Part shown: positions 4,182-13,709 of the stretch, in pieces | Layout: every line of letters begins with the position of its first letter | Position numbering within the stretch: position 1 is the stretch's first letter | Source of the DNA: Deferribacterota bacterium | GTDB taxonomy: Bacteria; Chrysiogenota; Deferribacteres; Deferribacterales; UBA228 | Direction: 5' to 3' | Assembly: GCA_034189185.1 (NCBI GenBank) | Contig: JAXHVM010000014.1 | Coordinates: forward strand, 1 to 22,255 | Length of the DNA: 22,255 nt | Made by a program: the position numbers and the translations under genes | The notes under the pieces: generated by a model | Databases searched by the model: none | Told to the model about the DNA's origin: nothing | Seen by the model: the letters and a program-made list of their open reading frames with translations, nothing else

Positions 4182-5288
4182 TCACACACCATAAGCCTTA
4201 TAACAACTTCTACAAACATTTGGTAGGGGATATTTTTTTAGCATATTTTCATATTTTTTGCCGTATTCACCTAAGGCAGCCATAGTCAACTCCATAGGTA
4301 AAATCCTTTCTGAAGCAATAATACGATTATTAAAAGAATCTCTAAATTCTTTATAAGCCTTGCTTTCCCATATATCAGAAAGCTCATCACTATCAATATT
4401 GCCAAAGGATAGTTTTTTTATCTCCTCATATTTATCACAAAATATCCGTTTAATATTTCCTTTTACTGGCAAATTTAGATAAACACATGGGCTAACATCG
4501 CCATTGACAGTAATAAAGATAGTATCAATGGGGCTTGCTTCACACATAGGTTGCTCACTCATTTTTATAGGGAATATTTTTAACGTTATACCTAGTTTTC
4601 TTGAGACAACCTTTGCTTTGTCTAAATAACCCTGATAACTAGTATTTACTTTACTACAGTCAAATAATTTTAATTCATCTTGAATAGACGTTGGAGTATA
4701 ATCAAGGTTTGTTGCAACTAATTCTTTAATATTAAACTTCTTCATTAAAGTTAATACTTCTGGTAATTCAGAAATATTATCTTTTGTCATCATATAAGAG
4801 AATTTTATTTGGGGATATTTTAAATTATTTTTCTTTTTGGCTGCTATAAGGCAGCTAATGTTATTTAACATATCACTTAATTTTCCTCCTCTAACCAAGG
4901 AATGAGTATGATCACTTGAGCCTCCCAATGAAAAAGCTAATATATCAATATTACTTTTCAAAAGCTCAACTATCATATTGTTATCCAATAACAGACCATT
5001 AGTGGTTAAACTTACAATACTGCCTGCCCTTTTTGCAATATTAACCATTTCAATTATATCTTTATGTAGCAAGGGCTCCCCCCACCCCTGCAGATGCACA
5101 TGCTTTGTCACCGAAAAATAATCTGACAATTTCTTATAAAGAGCAAGTGGCATATCCTCTTCAACCCATTGAACAGCTTGATCACTCCTTGGGCATATCC
5201 TACATTTTAACTGACACCTTGTAGTAGGCTCAACCTGCAAACAAAAAAACTTATATTTTCTTTTCCTCTTTAAATATCTGTTTAACAC
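4182..5288 (-). CDS. Radical SAM enzyme with a C-terminal Cys-rich auxiliary-cluster domain (SPASM/twitch-like).
   Basis: Motifs present: CQLKCRIC (Cx3Cx2C), GWGEPLL (SAM glycine-rich motif), SLTTNG. The C-terminal cysteines are CEASP..SPCVY, FCDKY and CRSCYKAYGV. The gene is convergent with the DUF1847 gene, and their stop codons are only 7 bp apart. Confidence 0.8.
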   Translation of the reverse strand: MLNRYLKRKRKYKFFCLQVEPTTRCQLKCRICPRSDQAVQWVEEDMPLALYKKLSDYFSVTKHVHLQGWGEPLLHKDIIEMVNIAKRAGSIVSLTTNGLLLDNNMIVELLKSNIDILAFSLGGSSDHTHSLVRGGKLSDMLNNISCLIAAKKKNNLKYPQIKFSYMMTKDNISELPEVLTLMKKFNIKELVATNLDYTPTSIQDELKLFDCSKVNTSYQGYLDKAKVVSRKLGITLKIFPIKMSEQPMCEASPIDTIFITVNGDVSPCVYLNLPVKGNIKRIFCDKYEEIKKLSFGNIDSDELSDIWESKAYKEFRDSFNNRIIASERILPMELTMAALGEYGKKYENMLKKYPLPNVCRSCYKAYGV

Positions 5289-6470: not shown

Positions 6471-7529
6471 TTAAAGCTCCAGAAATTCTGGCCGTCTATT
6501 GCATGCCTTTAGGCCTTCCTCTATTAGTTCAAGCACCGCCTGTTTTTCTTCTGGAAATTTGTAGCCCTCATAATCGTGTGAAAAAAGGAGTCCACCCCCA
6601 GGACGTTTCCAGTAGTTTCCAACGTGGTCAAAGCACACCCTACTTGTTACATTTAGGGATTCTATAGTAAGCTTTAGTTCATGTAGTTGTTCACTGGGCG
6701 AGAGCATAACAAAACTGCCAATCTGCCAGGCTTTATACATCAGGCTTCCTGGCAGGGGATAAAAAGGCCGGCAGCGGATGTAGTGGGGATTGATTTCGTT
6801 TAAAACCCTAGCTGTTTCTAAGGCATGGTTAATTGAAAAATCCTTTCCACCTAAACCGGGCATCCAGTATTCCGACACCTCAAATCCTGCCTCAATAGCC
6901 TTTTGACCACCTTTTATGTGTCCTTCAGCAGTTACTCCCTTTTTAACGTATTTCAATAGTTCATCATATCCTGATTCGAGTCCCACATGCAATCTATCCA
7001 GGCCTGCTTGCCTTATTGCCAAAAGTTCAGAGAGCTTTTTATGCTGAAGGGTCCTTGACCTTGCATAGGATGTAACCCTCTGGATGCTTGGGAATCTGCT
7101 GTGCAGGTATTGGAGAACTTCTACAAGATCGGCTATTTTCATTATCAAGCTATCAGCGTCCTGAAGGAAAGCAGTTCTACCTCCTGAAATCAACCAATTA
7201 AAAAGCATTGCAAAGCCATGATGATAACTAAGCTCAGGATGCTTGTTAAGGAATTTAATAGCTGCATCCCTGCTTATACCATCAGCAGACCCACCCTTTT
7301 CGGAGAGTTGTCTAAGCTCATTAGATATCAATGCCATTGCATCAATATCAGCCTTGATTTCGCTGATAGATCTCAACTCAAATTTCTTAGTTTTATACAT
7401 AGCGCAAAAAGCACACCTATTCCATGGGCAGTTGCGTGTTAAGCGAATAAGTAGTGAGTTACTACCCCCTTCGCTTGGAGGCCTATAAATTCCTACTTCA
7501 AACCTATATTGCGCTAAATCCTCCGGCAT
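6471..7529 (-). CDS. Radical-SAM-fold protein with a non-canonical cluster motif, Cx4Cx2C.
   Basis: The N-terminus reads YRPPSEGG..IRLTRNCPWNRCAFCAMYK, and the Cys spacing is 4 and 2 rather than the usual 3 and 2. Downstream are FLQDADSL (GGE-like), VTSYARS and LHVGLESG motifs typical of the radical SAM core. Confidence 0.6.
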   Translation of the reverse strand: MPEDLAQYRFEVGIYRPPSEGGSNSLLIRLTRNCPWNRCAFCAMYKTKKFELRSISEIKADIDAMALISNELRQLSEKGGSADGISRDAAIKFLNKHPELSYHHGFAMLFNWLISGGRTAFLQDADSLIMKIADLVEVLQYLHSRFPSIQRVTSYARSRTLQHKKLSELLAIRQAGLDRLHVGLESGYDELLKYVKKGVTAEGHIKGGQKAIEAGFEVSEYWMPGLGGKDFSINHALETARVLNEINPHYIRCRPFYPLPGSLMYKAWQIGSFVMLSPSEQLHELKLTIESLNVTSRVCFDHVGNYWKRPGGGLLFSHDYEGYKFPEEKQAVLELIEEGLKACNRRPEFLEL

Positions 7530-7648
7530 ACAGCTATTCCTTTCTTCTATTTTAAAATATTAAGAAAAAATTTCCACCCAATCATGAATAACAATTTAAC
7601 ATAGTAGGTTAACAATTTTTATGCACCAAACTGATGCAATTAACTTGC

Positions 7649-7822
7649 TCAAGTAAAACTACTATTTACACAACTACTACCTGTCGATGCGCTAAAAGCA
7701 GACATTAATTTTTTTACATTTTTACTTTTACATTTTGGACACTCAATTAAATCATCTTTTTTCATAACAATTTTACTAAACTTTTCACCACATTCATTAC
7801 ATTTAAATTCATAGATTGGCAT
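7649..7822 (-). CDS. FmdB-family zinc-ribbon protein, 57 aa. It is not in the ORF track because it is below the size cutoff.
   Basis: The minus-strand ATG at 7822..7820 is preceded by GGAGGG. The translation is MPIYEFKCNECGEKFSKIVMKKDDLIECPKCKSKNVKKLMSAFSASTGSSCVNSSFT, with TGA at 7651..7649. It shows the classic MPIYE(F/Y)xCxxCG...CPxC signature. Confidence 0.7.
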   Translation of the reverse strand: MPIYEFKCNECGEKFSKIVMKKDDLIECPKCKSKNVKKLMSAFSASTGSSCVNSSFT

Positions 7823-8130
7823 AAGCCCTCCTTCTCTCTTTAAGATTCTATATGAAAACTAAAATCTATTAAAAAAATTATATATTTATTGACAGAAAGC
7901 AATAAAATTATTAACATATGTTTATATGAAAATTATTTTCATTATTATATTTTTATTTTTAATCCTTTTATTAACAAGAATTTTTACACACATACTATTA
8001 AATTTAAACAGGTATGTTCAAAGATATAGTAATTTAACCAATAGTTTATTCTTTAACCTAGATTTTTCATTATTAAAAACATCTAATATTATAAGCTTTT
8101 TTTACCAAAAAAATACCGTTGGGGGTTTCT

Positions 8131-8967
8131 ATGGAGTTAAAGATAACTATATTATGTGAAAATAGCGTTATACTTCCCTTTGGATTAATTGGTGAGCACG
8201 GTTTTGCTGCTTATGTAGAATATGGTGATAGGGTATTTCTCTTTGATACAGCCCAAGGCAAAGGCTTACTAAATAATAGTAGGTTATTAAAAAAAGACCT
8301 TAAAAATATTGAATTTTTATATTTATCCCATGGCCACTACGACCATACACTTGGCATCCCCGATCTACTTAGTATAAAATCGCCACTTACTATATATGCC
8401 CATCCAGATATATTTAAAGATAGGGTTTGGATAATTAACAATAAGAAAAAATTTATAGGTATGCCCTTTAAAAAGGACTATTTAGAGGGCTTAGGTGCAG
8501 AATTTTCACTGTCAAAAAAATTTACTCAAATAGATGAGGGTATCTACTCATCAGGTGAAATAGTAAGGAAAACATCCTTTGAAAAAATTGATGCAGGTAT
8601 GAAAATAATTGATGATAATAACAATCTAGTAGATGATAACATACTTGATGACTACTCCCTTGCAATTAATACGAGCAAAGGACTTGTAATTATTTTAGGA
8701 TGTGCTCACTCTGGCATAATAAATATTATTAACCATTTTGTAGAAAAGACCGGCACAAATGACATATATGCTGTTTTAGGTGGAACCCATTTAGGTTTTG
8801 CAAGTGATCTGCAAATAGAAGAAACTATCAAAACTATTGAAAAATACAATATTAAAAAACTTGGTGCATCCCACTGCACAGGACTTGAGGTAGCAGCTAA
8901 ATTATATAATAAATTAAAGGATAGATTTTTCTTTGCCTCTGTAGGAGGGACTTTAGAAGTAAATTGA
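8131..8967 (+). CDS. MBL-fold metallo-hydrolase.
   Basis: It has the HxHxDH motif (LSHGHYDHT), with a later His (GCAHSG) and Asp. The ATG at 8131 is preferred, with a GGGGG RBS at 8121..8125. The track's alternative start is a TTG at 8119. Confidence 0.8.
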   Translation: MELKITILCENSVILPFGLIGEHGFAAYVEYGDRVFLFDTAQGKGLLNNSRLLKKDLKNIEFLYLSHGHYDHTLGIPDLLSIKSPLTIYAHPDIFKDRVWIINNKKKFIGMPFKKDYLEGLGAEFSLSKKFTQIDEGIYSSGEIVRKTSFEKIDAGMKIIDDNNNLVDDNILDDYSLAINTSKGLVIILGCAHSGIINIINHFVEKTGTNDIYAVLGGTHLGFASDLQIEETIKTIEKYNIKKLGASHCTGLEVAAKLYNKLKDRFFFASVGGTLEVN

Positions 8968-9590
8968 GGGCTTACAGAAGAAAATTCTACAATCTTTTTT
9001 CAATAATCTATGATAGTTTTGTTGCACTACATTCAAAAGACAAGGGTCAAGAAGCTAGAAAAGCATTAGCAGATTTGATAGATCCCAAAAAAGATAAAAT
9101 AATAGTAGATATATGCACAGGAACAGGCACACTTCTTCTCTATTTAGCTGATAAGTCAAGAGAAAGTAGGGTAATTGGAATTGATTTTTCAAGGGGAATG
9201 CTAAAAAAAGCAAAAGAAAAAACTAAAAACAAAAATAATATTTATCTCATTGAAGCAGATGTTGCAAATATGCCACTTAAAAATGAGATATGTGACAAAA
9301 TTATATGCTCCCATGCTTTTTATGAATTAAAAGGTATGGACCAAATAAAACTACTAAAAGAAGTGCAGCGAGTAATGAACCCTGAAGGCAATTTTTTAAT
9401 TATGGAACATGAAGTGCCAAAAAACCCATTTATAAAATTCCTCTTTTACATTAGAATATTCTCTATGGGGACAAACACTGCATTCACAATATTAAAAAGA
9501 GAAAAATCCCTTCTAAAAAAATATTTTAGTGATGTATCAAAAAAGCACAGCTATTCATCTAAATCTAAAATATATATCTGTAAAAAATAG
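8964..9590 (+). CDS. Class I SAM-dependent methyltransferase.
   Basis: It has the VDICTGTG motif I and an acidic residue after the second beta strand (GIDFS). Its start overlaps the MBL gene's stop by 4 nt, which suggests translational coupling. The TTG start is uncertain. Confidence 0.7.
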   Translation: MRAYRRKFYNLFSIIYDSFVALHSKDKGQEARKALADLIDPKKDKIIVDICTGTGTLLLYLADKSRESRVIGIDFSRGMLKKAKEKTKNKNNIYLIEADVANMPLKNEICDKIICSHAFYELKGMDQIKLLKEVQRVMNPEGNFLIMEHEVPKNPFIKFLFYIRIFSMGTNTAFTILKREKSLLKKYFSDVSKKHSYSSKSKIYICKK

Positions 9591-9612
9591 CTTACATCAT
9601 CTTTAATCTTAT

Positions 9613-10407
9613 CTATTTTAGCTCCAAACACACAGCTGCATTCTCAAACACTTGAAATGTTAAGGTCTCAAGGAAATATAAGCTTATATGTTTATCATTA
9701 TGACTATCATAACCAATTGATAAATCCTGCCCAAAATTTAAGATAAAATCACCACCCCTCTCTGATAAGAAAAAAACATCCTTTATATGAGGGGATACTA
9801 CAATCTTACCATCAATAGTATTCTTAACAGATTTGAGAAGTGGATAACCTTTACCATGGCTAACTATAAATTTCCATACCTCTGGTGATACTACTAATGA
9901 ATAGGGACCACCAATCCCTAGATAAACCAACTTTCCTTTTGCATCTACAATTGATTTTAATAAACTTTCTGCATCTAACGATAATGTAATAGTATCACTA
10001 ACATTCTTCTTTAAACCATCGACGTTTGCTTTCTTCATCCCGTAATATACTATCTCATCTTCTAGTTTAGATATCACACGAGCTGCCTCAATAAGTGGTG
10101 CCAAATCAGGATTTTTACACCCTCTATCTATACTATCTATCTCTTGCCTATCTAATTTGAAATATGTTTTTAGCTCTATTAATGGCTGAACATCAAAAAT
10201 TGAACATACTGTATTTTCATTGCTTTTTTCATCTAACTTTTTTAGTCTCCCCGTATTTATGACCCCAAAATCTAAACCCTTAGGCTCTTTAACATCAACT
10301 AATCTCCTTGCTGTTAGATAATTTGAAAAAGCATCCTTTGCTTGACTGAATAATTCCTTCCATGCTTTATCGCTAATTGGTGCTAATTCTTGTCTTAATA
10401 TGTTCAT
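9613..10407 (-). CDS. Family 1 encapsulin nanocompartment shell protein (HK97 fold).
   Basis: The 264-aa protein aligns by eye along its full length to T. maritima-type encapsulin (..PLIELKTYF.LD..E..ERGGDF.L..GQDLSIGY..ETLTFQV..). It has a GAGAGGT RBS. Confidence 0.9.
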   Translation of the reverse strand: MNILRQELAPISDKAWKELFSQAKDAFSNYLTARRLVDVKEPKGLDFGVINTGRLKKLDEKSNENTVCSIFDVQPLIELKTYFKLDRQEIDSIDRGCKNPDLAPLIEAARVISKLEDEIVYYGMKKANVDGLKKNVSDTITLSLDAESLLKSIVDAKGKLVYLGIGGPYSLVVSPEVWKFIVSHGKGYPLLKSVKNTIDGKIVVSPHIKDVFFLSERGGDFILNFGQDLSIGYDSHNDKHISLYFLETLTFQVFENAAVCLELK

Positions 10408-10429
10408 TTATTACCTCTCTCTCTTATTT

Positions 10430-10783
10430 TTATTTTAATTTTCCAATATTTAGACTACTATTTGGTTTATAGCTACTTTCTTCACTTGATGCCTCATTTC
10501 CTTCTATTGAGACTATATCTTCCTTTGTAAATAGATAAGTTTTCAAAGCTTCATCCCAAAAGCCCATATTTCTTCTAAGCCATTCAATTGCCATTACTGC
10601 ATGTTCAATCTCCTCATCCCTGTGATGTTCTAACATCCTTCTTAAACCTTCATCTTTGCAGACATCAACCCTTTGTTGGTACCAATTTACCGCTTCGACC
10701 TCTTCCTTTAGCGTATTTAATGCCCTAACAATATTTCTTGTTTCTTCGGATAACTCTTCAGTTGGTTCATGATAATCTGACAT
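10430..10783 (-). CDS. Encapsulated ferritin-like cargo protein (EncFtn) with a C-terminal encapsulin targeting peptide.
   Basis: It has the ferritin-like ExxH motifs (RRMLEHHRDEEIEHAVMAIEWLRR) and a flexible acidic/Ser-rich tail ending in SLNIGKLK, which matches the encapsulin cargo-loading peptide consensus. It lies 22 bp upstream of the shell gene on the same strand. Confidence 0.85.
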   Translation of the reverse strand: MSDYHEPTEELSEETRNIVRALNTLKEEVEAVNWYQQRVDVCKDEGLRRMLEHHRDEEIEHAVMAIEWLRRNMGFWDEALKTYLFTKEDIVSIEGNEASSEESSYKPNSSLNIGKLK

Positions 10784-10853
10784 ATATTCACCTCAATATA
10801 TTTATTTTTGTTATAATTATATATTAAAATATAAATTCTACAATAGTAAAATA

Positions 10854-10876
10854 GAAAGGCCTTTCAAAGGCCTTTC
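10854..10876 (-). terminator. Stem-loop (GAAAGGCC ... GGCCTTTC) downstream of the peroxiredoxin copy A stop. It may be a bidirectional terminator.
   Basis: An 8-11 bp perfect inverted repeat spans 10854..10876, with an A/T run on either side. It lies between the prx-A stop at 10908 and the EncFtn promoter region. Confidence 0.5.
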
Positions 10877-10907
10877 TATAATTATTTTATAAATTGTTAA
10901 AATAACG

Positions 10908-11630
10908 CTAATAAAGTGTTGAATAAGTAGGATTCCACACCTTCCATACATTACCTTCTAAATCTTCACTTGGGGTTAGGGTTATTTTGCCTGGCAACCA
11001 ACCAGCAGGCAATACCTCTCCTGTCTCTTTATTGTATTGTAATGCTTTAACCTGTCTAATTGTCTCATCTATATTTCTACCAACAGGTGGTGTTAAAACC
11101 TCCATAGCCCTTACTATACCATCGGGATCTATTATAAACCTACCTCTAATATCAACCTTACCTTCTTCATCATAAACATTATACAATCTCCCAATGCTAC
11201 CACCTGGATCAGAAAGCATAGGAAATTTTACTCCCCCTTCAATCATTTTCTTTAATTCTTTTTCTTGCCATTCTTGATGAGATTCAACAGAATTTACACT
11301 AACACTTAAAACCTCTACATTTAAAGATTTCAAAATATTGTATTTGGCAGCAACTGCTGTCAATTCGGTTGGTCAAACAAATGTAAAATCACCTGGATAG
11401 AAACACAATAGCACCCATTTGCCCTTATAATCAGAAAGGGAAACCCTTTTAAATTCACCATCGTGAAAGGCATCTGCAGTAAAATCTGGAGCAGGCTTAT
11501 CAACTTTAACAATATTCACATTATCTGAGCCAACACCGCTATTTTGCGCAAAAAGCTTGCCATCTACAACAAAAAGTCCCACTAATAAAATAGCTAAAAA
11601 TAGGCAATATTTACCTAATAGCCTACACAT
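10908..11630 (-). CDS. Peroxiredoxin copy A (AhpC/TSA family) with an N-terminal signal or anchor segment and an in-frame TGA at the peroxidatic Cys position. It is a candidate selenocysteine peroxiredoxin. The alternative is a nonsense-disrupted pseudogene.
   Basis: Track ORFs 11373..11630 and 10908..11363 are one frame separated only by TGA at 11375..11373. The translation reads ..[14 protein letters not shown]-[TGA][11 protein letters not shown]... The paralogue reads ..FYPRDFGIVCPTELTALAAKY... The frame is intact through to the shared C-terminus NPTYSTLY. It has its own AGGAGGTGA RBS and promoter. Confidence 0.55.
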
Positions 11631-11656
11631 ATATCACCTCCTATGCTTTTATTAAA

Positions 11657-11684
11657 ATTCTAACATAGATAAAATAATTGTCAA
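11657..11684 (-). promoter_or_regulatory. Candidate promoter for prx copy A (TTGACA-16-TAGAAT on the minus strand).
   Basis: The minus-strand TTGACA lies at 11684..11679 and TAGAAT at 11662..11657, about 20 nt upstream of the RBS and ATG at 11630. Confidence 0.4.
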
Positions 11685-11837
11685 CATAAGTTAATAATTA
11701 TTTTAAAAATAATTATAAACAAAAACTAAATAAAGATAATCTTCTTCAATATAGAATAGATAACCAACTGTACGTGCATAACACTTGATATTTATGAACT
11801 TATGATATAATATACAACCTGTTTTATTGGAAAGCTT

Positions 11838-11888
11838 ACGAAATTTAATGTAAATGCAATTGTAAAAAGCAGGGATGTCCAATCAAAT
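11838..11888 (+). pseudogene. Orphan 5' fragment of the thioesterase-like gene at the duplication junction. This is the first 51 nt of the gene, with ATG changed to ACG.
   Basis: The fragment ACGAAATTTAATGTAAATGCAATTGTAAAAAGCAGGGATGTCCAATCAAAT matches 12981..13031 except for the start codon. The duplicated promoter at about 11775..11810 is retained upstream of it. Confidence 0.6.
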
Positions 11889-11892
11889 TAAA

Positions 11893-11955
11893 GTATTTTA
11901 TGCTCTAACAATATTTCTTGTTTTATCTAATAATTCTTCAGTTAGCTCATAACAA
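11893..11955 (-). pseudogene. Orphan 5' fragment of the EncFtn gene (codons ~3-20) at the duplication junction. The start codon and RBS have been deleted.
   Basis: The sequence 11893..11955 is homologous to 10713..10775 (..CTAACAATATTTCTTGTTT..CTTCAGTT..). A ~30-bp deletion removes the ATG and RBS. Confidence 0.55.
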
Positions 11956-11984
11956 TCAAACACAAATTCTACAATATTAAAGTA

Positions 11985-12006
11985 GAAAGGCCTTGCAAAG
12001 ACCTTT
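11985..12006 (-). terminator. Degenerate copy of the terminator hairpin, downstream of prx copy B.
   Basis: The sequence GAAAGGCCttgcaaaGACCTTT forms a stem with one mismatch. Its position is the same as the hairpin in unit A. Confidence 0.4.
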
Positions 12007-12028
12007 AAATTAATAATTTAATATAATA

Positions 12029-12778
12029 TTAGTAAAGCGTTGAATAAGTTGGATTCCATTCCTTCCATACATTACCTTCTAATTCATCACTTGGGGTTAG
12101 GGTTGTTTTACCAGGTACCCAACCATCTGGCAGAACTTCTCCTGTCTCCTCATTATGTTGTAAAGCTTTTATCCGTCTAATAGTCTCATTTATATATCTA
12201 CCGGCTTGCGGTGTTAAAACATCCATTGCTCTTACTATACCATCGGGGTCTATTATAAAACTAGCTTTCAAATCAACTTTGCCTATAGATTTGCCCATAA
12301 CAACCAAACCTTCTTCATCATAAACATTATACAATCTCCCAATGCTACCATCGGGATCAGAAAGCATAGGAAATTTTACTCCCCCTTCAATCATTTTCTT
12401 TAATTCTTTTTCTTGCCATTCTTGATGGGATTCAACAGAATTTACACTAACACTTAAAACCTCTACATTTAAAGATTTCAAAATATTGTATTTGGCAGCA
12501 AGTGCTGTCAATTCTGTTGGGCAGACTATCCCAAAATCACGTGGATAGAAATGTAAAAGTACCCATTTGCCCCTATAATCAGATAATGAGACCTTTTTAA
12601 ATTCACCATCGTGAAAGGCATCTGCAGTAAAATCAGGAGCAGGCTTATCAACTTTAACAATATTCACATTATCTGAGCCAACACCGCTATTTTGCGCAAA
12701 AAGCTTGCCATCTACAACAAAAAGTCCCACTAATAAAATAGCTAAAAATAGGCAATATGTGCCTATACATTTGTTCAT
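12029..12778 (-). CDS. Peroxiredoxin copy B (AhpC/TSA family), Cys-containing, with an N-terminal hydrophobic signal or anchor. It has no C-terminal resolving Cys.
   Basis: It has FYPRDFGIVCPTEL with the peroxidatic Cys present. Where typical 2-Cys Prx has the resolving EVCP Cys, the C-terminus reads EVLPDGW. Relative to copy A it carries a 27-nt in-frame insertion (LVVMGKSIG). It has an AGGAGGTGA RBS. Confidence 0.85.
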   Translation of the reverse strand: MNKCIGTYCLFLAILLVGLFVVDGKLFAQNSGVGSDNVNIVKVDKPAPDFTADAFHDGEFKKVSLSDYRGKWVLLHFYPRDFGIVCPTELTALAAKYNILKSLNVEVLSVSVNSVESHQEWQEKELKKMIEGGVKFPMLSDPDGSIGRLYNVYDEEGLVVMGKSIGKVDLKASFIIDPDGIVRAMDVLTPQAGRYINETIRRIKALQHNEETGEVLPDGWVPGKTTLTPSDELEGNVWKEWNPTYSTLY

Positions 12779-12804
12779 ATATCACCTCCTAAATCGAGGA
12801 TGGT

Positions 12805-12832
12805 ATTGTAACACAGATAAAATTATTTTCAA
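12805..12832 (-). promoter_or_regulatory. Candidate promoter for prx copy B (TTGAAA-16-TACAAT on the minus strand).
   Basis: The minus-strand TTGAAA lies at 12832..12827 and TACAAT at 12810..12805. The position is the same as the prx-A promoter. Confidence 0.4.
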
Positions 12833-12927
12833 CATAAGTTAATAATTATTTTAAAAATAATTATAAGCACACTCTACATAAAATATATTCTCATCAATAT
12901 GGAGAGCTTGTTATATGATTATATTCC

Positions 12928-12956
12928 TTGATAATTATGAACTTATGATATAATAT
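12928..12956 (+). promoter_or_regulatory. Candidate promoter for the thioesterase-like gene (TTGATA ... TATAAT).
   Basis: TTGATA at 12928..12933 and TATAAT at 12949..12954, giving a 15-nt spacer. The alternative -10, TAATAT, gives a 17-nt spacer. A duplicate of this promoter exists at about 11775..11810. Confidence 0.3.
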
Positions 12957-12980
12957 ACAACCTGTTTTATTGGAAAGCTT

Positions 12981-13709
12981 ATGAAATTTAATGTAAATGC
13001 AATTGTAAAAAGCAGGGATGTCCAATCAAATGGCTATATTAGATTTCCCCATTTAGTTAGAATATTTCAGAATTCAGCATTTAAACACTCGGATTATCTT
13101 GGCTTAACACAAGATATACTTCTGAAAAATAGACTAGCATGGGTTTTATATTCAATGTATGTTAAAGTATATAATTATCCTAAATTAAATGACAATTTAT
13201 CAATAACAACATGGGTGGATAGCAAGCAAAAAATATTAATAAAGCGAGATTATCAAGTGACAAATAATAATACACCTATTTTAGATGCAACCTCCTCTTG
13301 GGTATTGTTTAATTTAGATAAAAGGCAAGCTATGTTTATCCCTGACAATATTTACTATATCTATGAACCTGAATATGAAAATATCTTATCCAAAGAAGAA
13401 AATAAATTGCCTTTTTATAATAATATTAATTATAATTACTATTATGAATTTACAATACGTCACATGGATTTAGATTCTAATGATCATGTAAATAATATTA
13501 CATATATAGATTTTATCTATACAGCAGTTTATAGAATGCTAAAAAAACCTGTATATATAAAAACGTTAAATATTATATATAAAAAAGAGATAACTTTAGA
13601 TGTCGAGAAAGTAAACATTCAATTAAATAACGATTCAGAGCAATTTAATTTTAAAATTGTTAATGACAACAACCTCTATTCCTATGGATTTTTACAACTA
13701 TATAAATAG
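12981..13709 (+). CDS. Acyl-ACP thioesterase-like protein with a double hotdog fold.
   Basis: The 242-aa protein has a C-terminal hotdog region with LDSNDHVNNITYIDFI (D..HVNN..Y) and an N-terminal ..NGYIRF..L..FQ..A..H region that resembles FatA/B-type thioesterases. Family assignment is from memory. Confidence 0.55.
   Translation: MKFNVNAIVKSRDVQSNGYIRFPHLVRIFQNSAFKHSDYLGLTQDILLKNRLAWVLYSMYVKVYNYPKLNDNLSITTWVDSKQKILIKRDYQVTNNNTPILDATSSWVLFNLDKRQAMFIPDNIYYIYEPEYENILSKEENKLPFYNNINYNYYYEFTIRHMDLDSNDHVNNITYIDFIYTAVYRMLKKPVYIKTLNIIYKKEITLDVEKVNIQLNNDSEQFNFKIVNDNNLYSYGFLQLYK

Follow-up and report, generated by a model that had tools for sequence, protein, structure and literature searches.

The peroxiredoxin locus and its tandem duplication

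We analyzed a 22,255-nucleotide (nt) stretch of DNA, referred to below as the window, that makes up positions 1 to 22,255 of contig JAXHVM010000014.1 in the Deferribacterota assembly GCA_034189185.1. Two related peroxiredoxin genes lie there in tandem on the minus strand: copy A, interrupted by a TGA codon, and copy B, which carries a cysteine codon in the same column. An earlier note on this DNA had read copy A as the gene of a selenocysteine (Sec) peroxiredoxin and copy B as its plain Cys back-up. We found the first proposal to be very probably right, on the comparative evidence given below, while the second is doubtful. The coordinates of all features discussed are collected in Table 1.

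Table 1. Features of the peroxiredoxin locus and its neighborhood, in window coordinates
Feature	Position	Strand	Basis or remark
Copy A, PrxU-family peroxiredoxin gene, predicted to be read through one UGA (Sec86)	10908..11630	-	Single TGA, NF040737 score, dN/dS
UGA codon at the peroxidatic position of PxxxTxxU	11375..11373	-	Codon 86, aligned with TGC of copy B
SECIS-like hairpin UUGACAGC-AGUU-GCUGCCAA	11344..11363	-	nt 13-32 from the U of UGA; tetraloop 11355..11352, GU at nt 22-23
Predicted signal peptide, followed by QNSGVG	11544..11630	-	Inspection: basic n-region, hydrophobic stretch of ~15 residues, small residue at -1
Promoter-like TTGACA-16-TAGAAT of copy A, TG-extended	11657..11684	-	11/12 matches; -35, spacer and -10 kept upstream of orthologues
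Perfect AT-rich palindrome ATAATTATTTT-T-AAAATAATTAT just upstream of the copy A -35	11694..11716	-	Identical at copy B, 12842..12864
Predicted intrinsic terminator of copy A	10851..10879	-	13-bp stem, then T-run
Copy B, Cys paralogue MDY6820372.1 (peroxiredoxin), 249 residues, remodelled active site	12029..12778	-	TGC at 12523..12521
Tandem duplication of ~1.15 kb	10708..13031	-	Unit A ~10708..11888, unit B ~11888..13031; direct-repeat families spaced 1121-1180 nt
EncFtn, encapsulin-associated ferritin-like cargo, downstream neighbor	10430..10783	-	TIGR04535, 147.8 bits (cut-off 125)
Family 1 encapsulin shell protein MDY6820369.1	9613..10407	-	NF041155, 238 bits (cut-off 100)

Translated in its reading frame, copy A comprised 240 codons with exactly one internal stop and no frameshift, and in the alignment with copy B this stop fell on the peroxidatic Cys codon. 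Translation and alignment thus bore out that the TGA stands in place of the Cys codon and is the sole lesion of the gene. The listing of open reading frames (ORFs) broke copy A into 11373..11630 (85 residues) and 10908..11363 (151 residues, with a TTG start), just as the earlier note had remarked. The catalytic tetrad of copy A was complete (P79, T83, U86 and R162, the active-site context being P79-G-D-F-T83-F-V-U86), and the C-terminus NPTYSTLY was common to both copies. The promoter, ribosome-binding site (AGGAGG at 11642..11637), signal peptide and terminator that had been ascribed to copy A were all found, the signal peptide by inspection only.

The paralogue had the active-site reading FYPRDFGIVCPTEL. 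Each of the two duplicated units contained the 5' end of a thioesterase gene (the first ~50 nt), a promoter, a peroxiredoxin gene, a terminator and the 5' end of the EncFtn gene (the first ~75 nt). Between the copies we observed a degenerate EncFtn start (11888..11969) and a remnant of the thioesterase start (11784..11888). The identity of the two copies was a mosaic, in which blocks of 160-200 nt at 100% identity adjoined others that had diverged by ~20%; the latter include the active-site block and the C-terminal third. Recent gene conversion between the copies would best account for the identical blocks. A recent duplication as the origin of copy B was ruled out by the synonymous divergence (dS) of copies A and B in the unconverted blocks, which reached 0.54-0.61. 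The dS between copy A and its orthologue in a related lineage (contig L012) was 0.30-0.35; because the former value exceeds the latter, the paralogue is old.

One may ask if the tandem is real at all. Two strain alleles, one with TGA and one with Cys, could have been stitched together in assembly, so that no genome would contain both; we consider this improbable. The window is a contig of a metagenome-assembled genome (MAG), and identical blocks of 160-200 nt are prone to mis-assembly. Furthermore, an exact-protein look-up of the encapsulin returned only one 3.8-kb Logan contig, L001 (SRR24907498), which matched window 11189..7429 with 3752/3761 identical positions (99.8%). This contig stops 29 nt inside an A/B-identical block (L001:1 is window 11189), as expected for a k=31 graph that branches at a repeat, and it therefore marks a branch in that assembly graph. 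Since L001 ends within the shared block, both variants also co-occur in the SRR24907498 sample. The junction (11888) is structured like that of a true tandem duplication, with an EncFtn remnant of 79% identity and a thioesterase remnant whose ATG has become ACG, neither of which would be produced by stitching of alleles. The diverged blocks of copy B are also farther from copy A than the L012 lineage is, and a copy-B-like allele was present in no other contig. The same exact-protein look-up against contigs returned none for copy B or for HisD. An assembly artefact in the tandem would have no bearing on whether copy A is read with Sec.

Evidence for selenocysteine in copy A

The homologue search returned three clusters of 151-residue C-terminal fragments (94, 95 and 85% identity), along with a 241-residue protein with tryptophan (W) at the catalytic position. 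For comparison with the window we used Deferribacterota-type lineages represented by contigs L002, L012, L014 and L098 (over 25 contigs, which came from many samples and included those of two NCBI MAGs, GCA_002348105.1 and GCA_002402635.1). In every related contig fetched, the catalytic codon was TGA and there was no other stop, which makes five sequence-distinct lineages with that of the window. In the relatives, a single TGA-type peroxiredoxin copy occupied the syntenic interval, which is bounded by an acyl-ACP thioesterase gene on one side and by either the EncFtn/encapsulin genes or a methyltransferase gene on the other. Since the relatives hold the TGA copy only, the Sec form appears to be the standard state of the clade and the Cys copy a lineage-specific addition.

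The ratio of nonsynonymous to synonymous substitution rates (dN/dS) was determined separately for the two parts of the gene. Downstream of the TGA it was 0.045-0.085 (154 codons, six pairwise comparisons among four lineages, dS 0.3-1.4), and upstream of the TGA it was 0.09-0.13 (60 codons, pairwise between four lineages). Such low values after the TGA indicate that the downstream part is translated in frame, in agreement with the earlier observation that the frame stays intact down to the shared C-terminus. The TGA was shared by four further lineages at dS values up to 1.4 and is thus not a recent strain-specific nonsense mutation.

These data bear directly on the idea that copy A is a pseudogene, in which a recent TGC-to-TGA change inactivated one of two redundant copies and left copy B to do the work. 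TGA and TGC are one base apart, an intact Cys paralogue adjoins, and Sec machinery was not seen within the 22-kb contig. Nevertheless, we judge this explanation highly improbable. Every related lineage has the TGA without having a Cys copy, the downstream part evolved under strong constraint, and the range of dS excludes a single clonal population that carries the same dead allele. When amino acid changes were polarised with three outgroups, only 1 fell on the branch of copy A, compared to 19 substitutions and a 9-residue insertion on that of copy B. The full catalytic tetrad is found in copy A and not in copy B, and the TGA predominates throughout the family, as described below.

A hairpin resembling a selenocysteine insertion sequence (SECIS) was found downstream of the TGA, where the earlier note had suggested searching for one. 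Counted from the U of UGA, it consists of the bases U13 U14 G15 A16 C17 A18 G19 C20 (A21 G22 U23 U24) G25 C26 U27 G28 C29 C30 A31 A32, with the loop in brackets. The upper stem has 4 base pairs (bp); below it there is an A.C mismatch at pair 16-29, followed by three more pairs. The hairpin was unchanged in all Deferribacterota-type lineages, while the wobble sites directly upstream varied (CCAACC, CCAACG, CCAACT).

Covariation was assessed in 86 distinct TGA-containing sequences of the family, with 500 shuffles and with slid registers as a control. The helix cells were paired in 84% of cases, and the pairs changed on both sides numbered 62, compared to 21.6 +/- 5.1 in the shuffles (0/500 reached the observed count). 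Slid registers scored far below the register of nt 13-32. Pair 18-27 links two codon wobble positions and was found as GC 63, AU 11, GU 4, CG 2 and UA 2 times. The loop of the family reads [A/G]-G-U-[U/C], with G22 conserved in at least 90% of sequences and U23 invariant. In copy B the stem was kept but the loop was ACUU instead of AGUU, with the conserved G lost.

The SECIS of E. coli fdhF, whose sequence we checked in 5,419 E. coli genomes, is a useful reference. As in copy A, the fdhF hairpin lies directly 3' of the UGA within the coding region and has an unpaired position below the upper stem. Its loop GGUC occupies nt 22-25, with G23 and U24 being the contacts of SelB; the GU of the window hairpin, at nt 22-23, is located at almost the same distance. 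The window stem differs from that of fdhF in that it is shorter (4 + 3 bp), has AGUU or GGUC as the loop and has the A.C mismatch where fdhF has a bulged U.

Family membership was evaluated with curated protein models. Copy A, with C substituted for U, scored 324.1 bits (E 5e-97) against NF040737 'peroxi_PrxU', an NCBIfam equivalog with a cut-off of 270, and copy B scored 269.8 bits, just under the cut-off. The AhpC model TIGR03137 has a cut-off of 272 bits, which neither copy A (183 bits) nor copy B (148 bits) reached. As judged by its NF040737 score relative to the cut-off, copy A is a new member of the known, curated selenoprotein family PrxU. For the Sec-containing PrxU of Eubacterium (Peptoclostridium) acidaminophilum, PMC13188914 cites Sohling et al. 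(2001). As a bacterial selenoprotein family, the TxxU peroxiredoxins have an experimental foundation and have been widely catalogued (Sohling et al., 2001, cited in PMC13188914; Zhang et al., 2006; PMC1794560).

Among the 120 closest proteins in a collection of 5.8 billion sequences, the catalytic position was W in 90, C in 26 and R in 1, and 3 were split fragments. For one of the W-containing proteins (P0002) the codon was checked on the DNA and was TGA; under translation table 11 the gene at that locus did not match the W-containing query. We therefore take the tryptophan to be an artefact of gene calling, in which TGA was read by code 4 on short contigs. Consequently, most database entries of the family would be miscalled, 90 of the 120 closest with a spurious Trp from code-4 calling and 3 as truncated proteins. 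The protein with Arg (P0024, FTFVRPTE) would be one base away from TGA if its codon is CGA or AGA, and it may represent a dead allele or a sequencing error.

We also scanned GTDB, with one genome per species, and obtained at least 80 loci. Among the matches listed, the catalytic codon was TGA in 83/85 motif instances and in 79/80 loci; no Deferribacterota genome was among them. The loci listed came from Chloroflexota, Desulfobacterota, Bacillota, Acidobacteriota, Zixibacteria, Actinomycetota and other phyla. Four listed loci (L033, L052, L057 and L066) had two TGA-type PrxU paralogues 1-5 kb apart, and predicted Sec/Sec tandem pairs thus exist in the family too.

That UGA could be an ordinary sense codon of this organism (Trp in code 4 or Gly in code 25), a notion to which the 90 W calls and an in-frame TGA in a radical-SAM gene of the L002 lineage at a site of Gly codons in the window and L012 might lend some appeal, deserves hardly any credence: the W calls are spread over many code-11 phyla and mainly concern short contigs, a peroxiredoxin with Trp or Gly as its peroxidatic residue would be catalytically dead, the codon is followed by a covarying SECIS-like hairpin, and the genome appears to use the standard code, because TGA ends 4 of the 20 long ORFs of the window, at sensible gene ends, and no other long frame requires read-through. 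A scan of the window for a second long frame interrupted only by TGA gave none; the other cases were antisense or terminal TGAs.

Several observations weigh against the reading of copy A as a selenoprotein gene. Taken alone, the window hairpin is short and folds weakly (-6.3 kcal/mol, z -1.4; 18/200 shuffles folded equally well), and it has the A.C mismatch in its stem. Its conservation is partly due to the protein, because the stem lies within the conserved coding segment ELTAVAAKY. A tRNA, an Rfam match, sel genes and a second selenoprotein gene were all absent from the 22-kb contig, which is the extent of DNA that this negative covers. More specifically, the window and 17 related loci contained no tRNA (tRNA-Sec included), and no Rfam family exceeded the threshold in the window. 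The incorporation of selenium in copy A is argued from sequence comparison, and the export of its product was judged by eye only. In favor of that reading, though indirectly, SelD, SelA and SelB were present in 5/5 Deferribacteres genomes (Peng et al., 2016, Table S1).

Taken together, the TGA conserved across lineages, the purifying selection downstream of it, the hairpin that covaries family-wide though weak as a single fold, and the PrxU score above the cut-off make it very probable that copy A is an intact PrxU-family peroxiredoxin gene with selenocysteine as the peroxidatic residue. Transcription would start from a strong sigma-70-type promoter, and the palindrome upstream of it would possibly serve as a Fur/PerR-type operator. 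The UGA at codon 86 would be decoded by Sec-tRNA(Sec), presumably delivered by SelB, which would be recruited by the small hairpin that starts 13 nt after the U of UGA and exposes a GU-containing tetraloop at nt 21-24. The 240-residue product, with its predicted N-terminal signal peptide, would probably be exported or anchored in the membrane and would use its active-site selenolate (P-x-x-x-T-x-x-U / Arg162) to reduce peroxides. The thiol used for recycling would then be a different one, provided either by Cys76 (at -10, conserved in the family) or by an external reductant of the thioredoxin type.

Annotation should accordingly present copy A as one selenoprotein of 240 residues instead of splitting it in two or labeling it a pseudogene. 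The NCBI accessions are MDY6820369.1 for the encapsulin and MDY6820372.1 for copy B. The numbers in between, 370 and 371, would fall to the two intervening genes, EncFtn and copy A, and neither fragment of copy A was present in the protein collection. This gap in the numbering, together with the missing fragments, suggests that NCBI annotated copy A as a single product. The established picture of bacterial selenoproteins is left unchanged by this gene.

The Cys paralogue and features of the proteins

Copy B differs from copy A in more than the catalytic residue. Its changes at family-invariant positions include two residues of the catalytic tetrad (T83G and R162K) as well as G163A, R164S and C76H. 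In the diverged blocks, dN/dS (omega) was 0.19-0.26 for copy B compared to 0.03-0.09 for copy A. Copy B is thus under relaxed yet real purifying selection. No copy-B-like sequence or orthologue was found elsewhere in the database; it was present in this MAG only.

From established peroxiredoxin enzymology, an enzyme that lacks the Thr and the Arg should be less efficient as a peroxidase by orders of magnitude. Because these catalytic residues are lost, copy B appears to have changed its function rather than to serve as a back-up. The plain back-up role proposed for it earlier is made doubtful by T83G, R162K, C76H, the 9-residue insertion and the score under the PrxU cut-off; judging from the sequence, it is more likely that copy B was sub- or neofunctionalised than that it is an equivalent back-up. 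With TGA in the outgroups and in most family members, descent of the Cys copy from a Sec ancestor is the simplest explanation, and copy B looks like a Sec-to-Cys derivative. This direction is unlike that of the events in the Prx table of Zhang et al. (2006; PMC1794560), which has Cys-to-Sec conversions only (5 events) and no Sec-to-Cys conversion. We thus have a natural pair of Sec and Cys paralogues in which the Cys copy remodelled its catalytic site instead of simply replacing Sec, and the pair bears on the fate of an active site upon the Sec-to-Cys exchange.

The N-terminus of copy A is also unusual for the family. The first 29 residues resemble a signal peptide, and the junction AQ(N/S/D)SGVG was kept in four lineages despite the divergence of the sequence around it. 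This Deferribacterota clade was alone among the 120 closest homologues in combining the TGA with a hydrophobic N-terminus. The protein is probably exported or membrane-anchored, and the case would add an exported selenoperoxiredoxin to those known.

Some relatives have another kind of N-terminus. Among the 116 closest homologues whose active-site motif could be recognized, ~22 had an extension with a conserved CxxPxxG(P) motif, in Sec as well as Cys forms (for example, P0005, P0008, P0012, P0018, P0032 and P0036). This extension is soluble, and the Deferribacterota proteins have the signal peptide in its place. The CxxPxxG(P) extension may supply the resolving Cys.

The resolving Cys of the EVCP motif was absent from copy A (GEVLPAGW) and from copy B (GEVLPDGW), compared to GEVCPAGW in 4fh8. 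Its position is occupied by Leu here and by T, L, M or A in the family, with Cys absent in all 70 family proteins listed. As the canonical resolving Cys is missing, recycling would go through another thiol. Nearly all family members, in Sec and Cys forms alike, had a Cys ten residues before the catalytic residue, which in copy A is Cys76, and we regard this residue as the candidate resolving thiol.

With the PrxU of E. acidaminophilum and the NF040737 family, copy A shares the UGA-encoded Sec in PxxxTxxU, a Prx1/AhpC-like fold without the C-terminal resolving Cys, and the downstream SECIS hairpin. It differs from PrxU in having a signal-peptide-like N-terminus, in lying beside EncFtn and encapsulin genes and a diverged Cys paralogue, and in being known here from sequence. 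The likeness to the bacterial 'Prx' selenoprotein family extends to the TxxU motif and the anaerobe-type genome, and Sec/Cys homologue pairs are typical of that family. With typical 2-Cys peroxiredoxins (AhpC and human PRDX1-4; the best PDB matches were 4fh8, 5jly and 1qmv) the gene products share the fold and the pattern FYPxDFTFV(C/U)PTE ... RG-FIIDP. Unlike them, copy A has Leu for the EVCP resolving Cys and a predicted Sec as the peroxidatic residue, and it falls short of the TIGR03137 cut-off.

Iron-related neighborhood and other genes

The palindrome upstream of copy A, a candidate operator of the Fur/PerR type, was identical in the L002 and L012 lineages, and L014 and L098 retained part of it. 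The gene order Prx-EncFtn-encapsulin was syntenic in L002-L013. An iron-type ABC transporter was located upstream in all lineages, and the L014 lineage also had Fur and a TonB-dependent receptor. The linkage of the peroxiredoxin gene to encapsulated ferritin and iron-uptake genes is thus conserved and points to a module for peroxide and iron stress. In the fifth lineage (L098-L101, of the P0002 type), the TGA-type peroxiredoxin gene was followed by a shorter EncFtn-like gene (97 residues) and then by a methyltransferase gene, with no encapsulin gene between them.

On inspection, the EncFtn C-terminus (...SSLNIGKLK) resembles the cargo-loading peptide of family 1 encapsulins. The peroxiredoxin was considered as an encapsulin cargo as well, which we judge unlikely on account of its predicted signal peptide, its own terminator and the lack of a C-terminal loading peptide (the protein ends in NPTYSTLY; inspection only). 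With its own terminator and no loading peptide, it is a neighbor of the encapsulin system and not an evident cargo.

A tentative scenario, possible but on balance doubtful, is that this clade turned the normally cytoplasmic PrxU into an exported enzyme of an iron/peroxide stress island made up of the iron ABC transporter, Fur in one lineage and the encapsulated ferritin. Copy B would then combine a Sec-to-Cys conversion with neofunctionalisation, for example, as a redox sensor or as the thiol-transfer partner of the selenoenzyme, and would not be a selenium-sparing back-up.

The radical-SAM/SPASM gene at L002:14404 (also in L003, L004 and L005) is an orthologue of window 4182..5288 and has an in-frame TGA; this allele was observed in at least 4 contigs from different samples. 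As a second Sec gene it was rejected, since its TGA aligns with Gly codons (GGT in the window, GGG in L012) and not with Cys. It looks like a nonsense allele or a case of unexplained read-through.

Another radical-SAM gene, window 6471..7529 on the minus strand (352 residues), had a G+C content of 0.43, compared to 0.30-0.33 around it. The gene was present in L012/L013 and absent from L002-type loci; because of this absence and the deviating G+C content it may be a recent insertion. In L002 and L012 the position of the window's left end is occupied by GGDEF/EAL genes and by DsrE, which belongs to a recognized selenoprotein family. None of these was present at the left end of the window, hence the synteny stops at the ParA-like gene. 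A transketolase-like ORF on the minus strand (1..~1470) runs off the left end of the contig.

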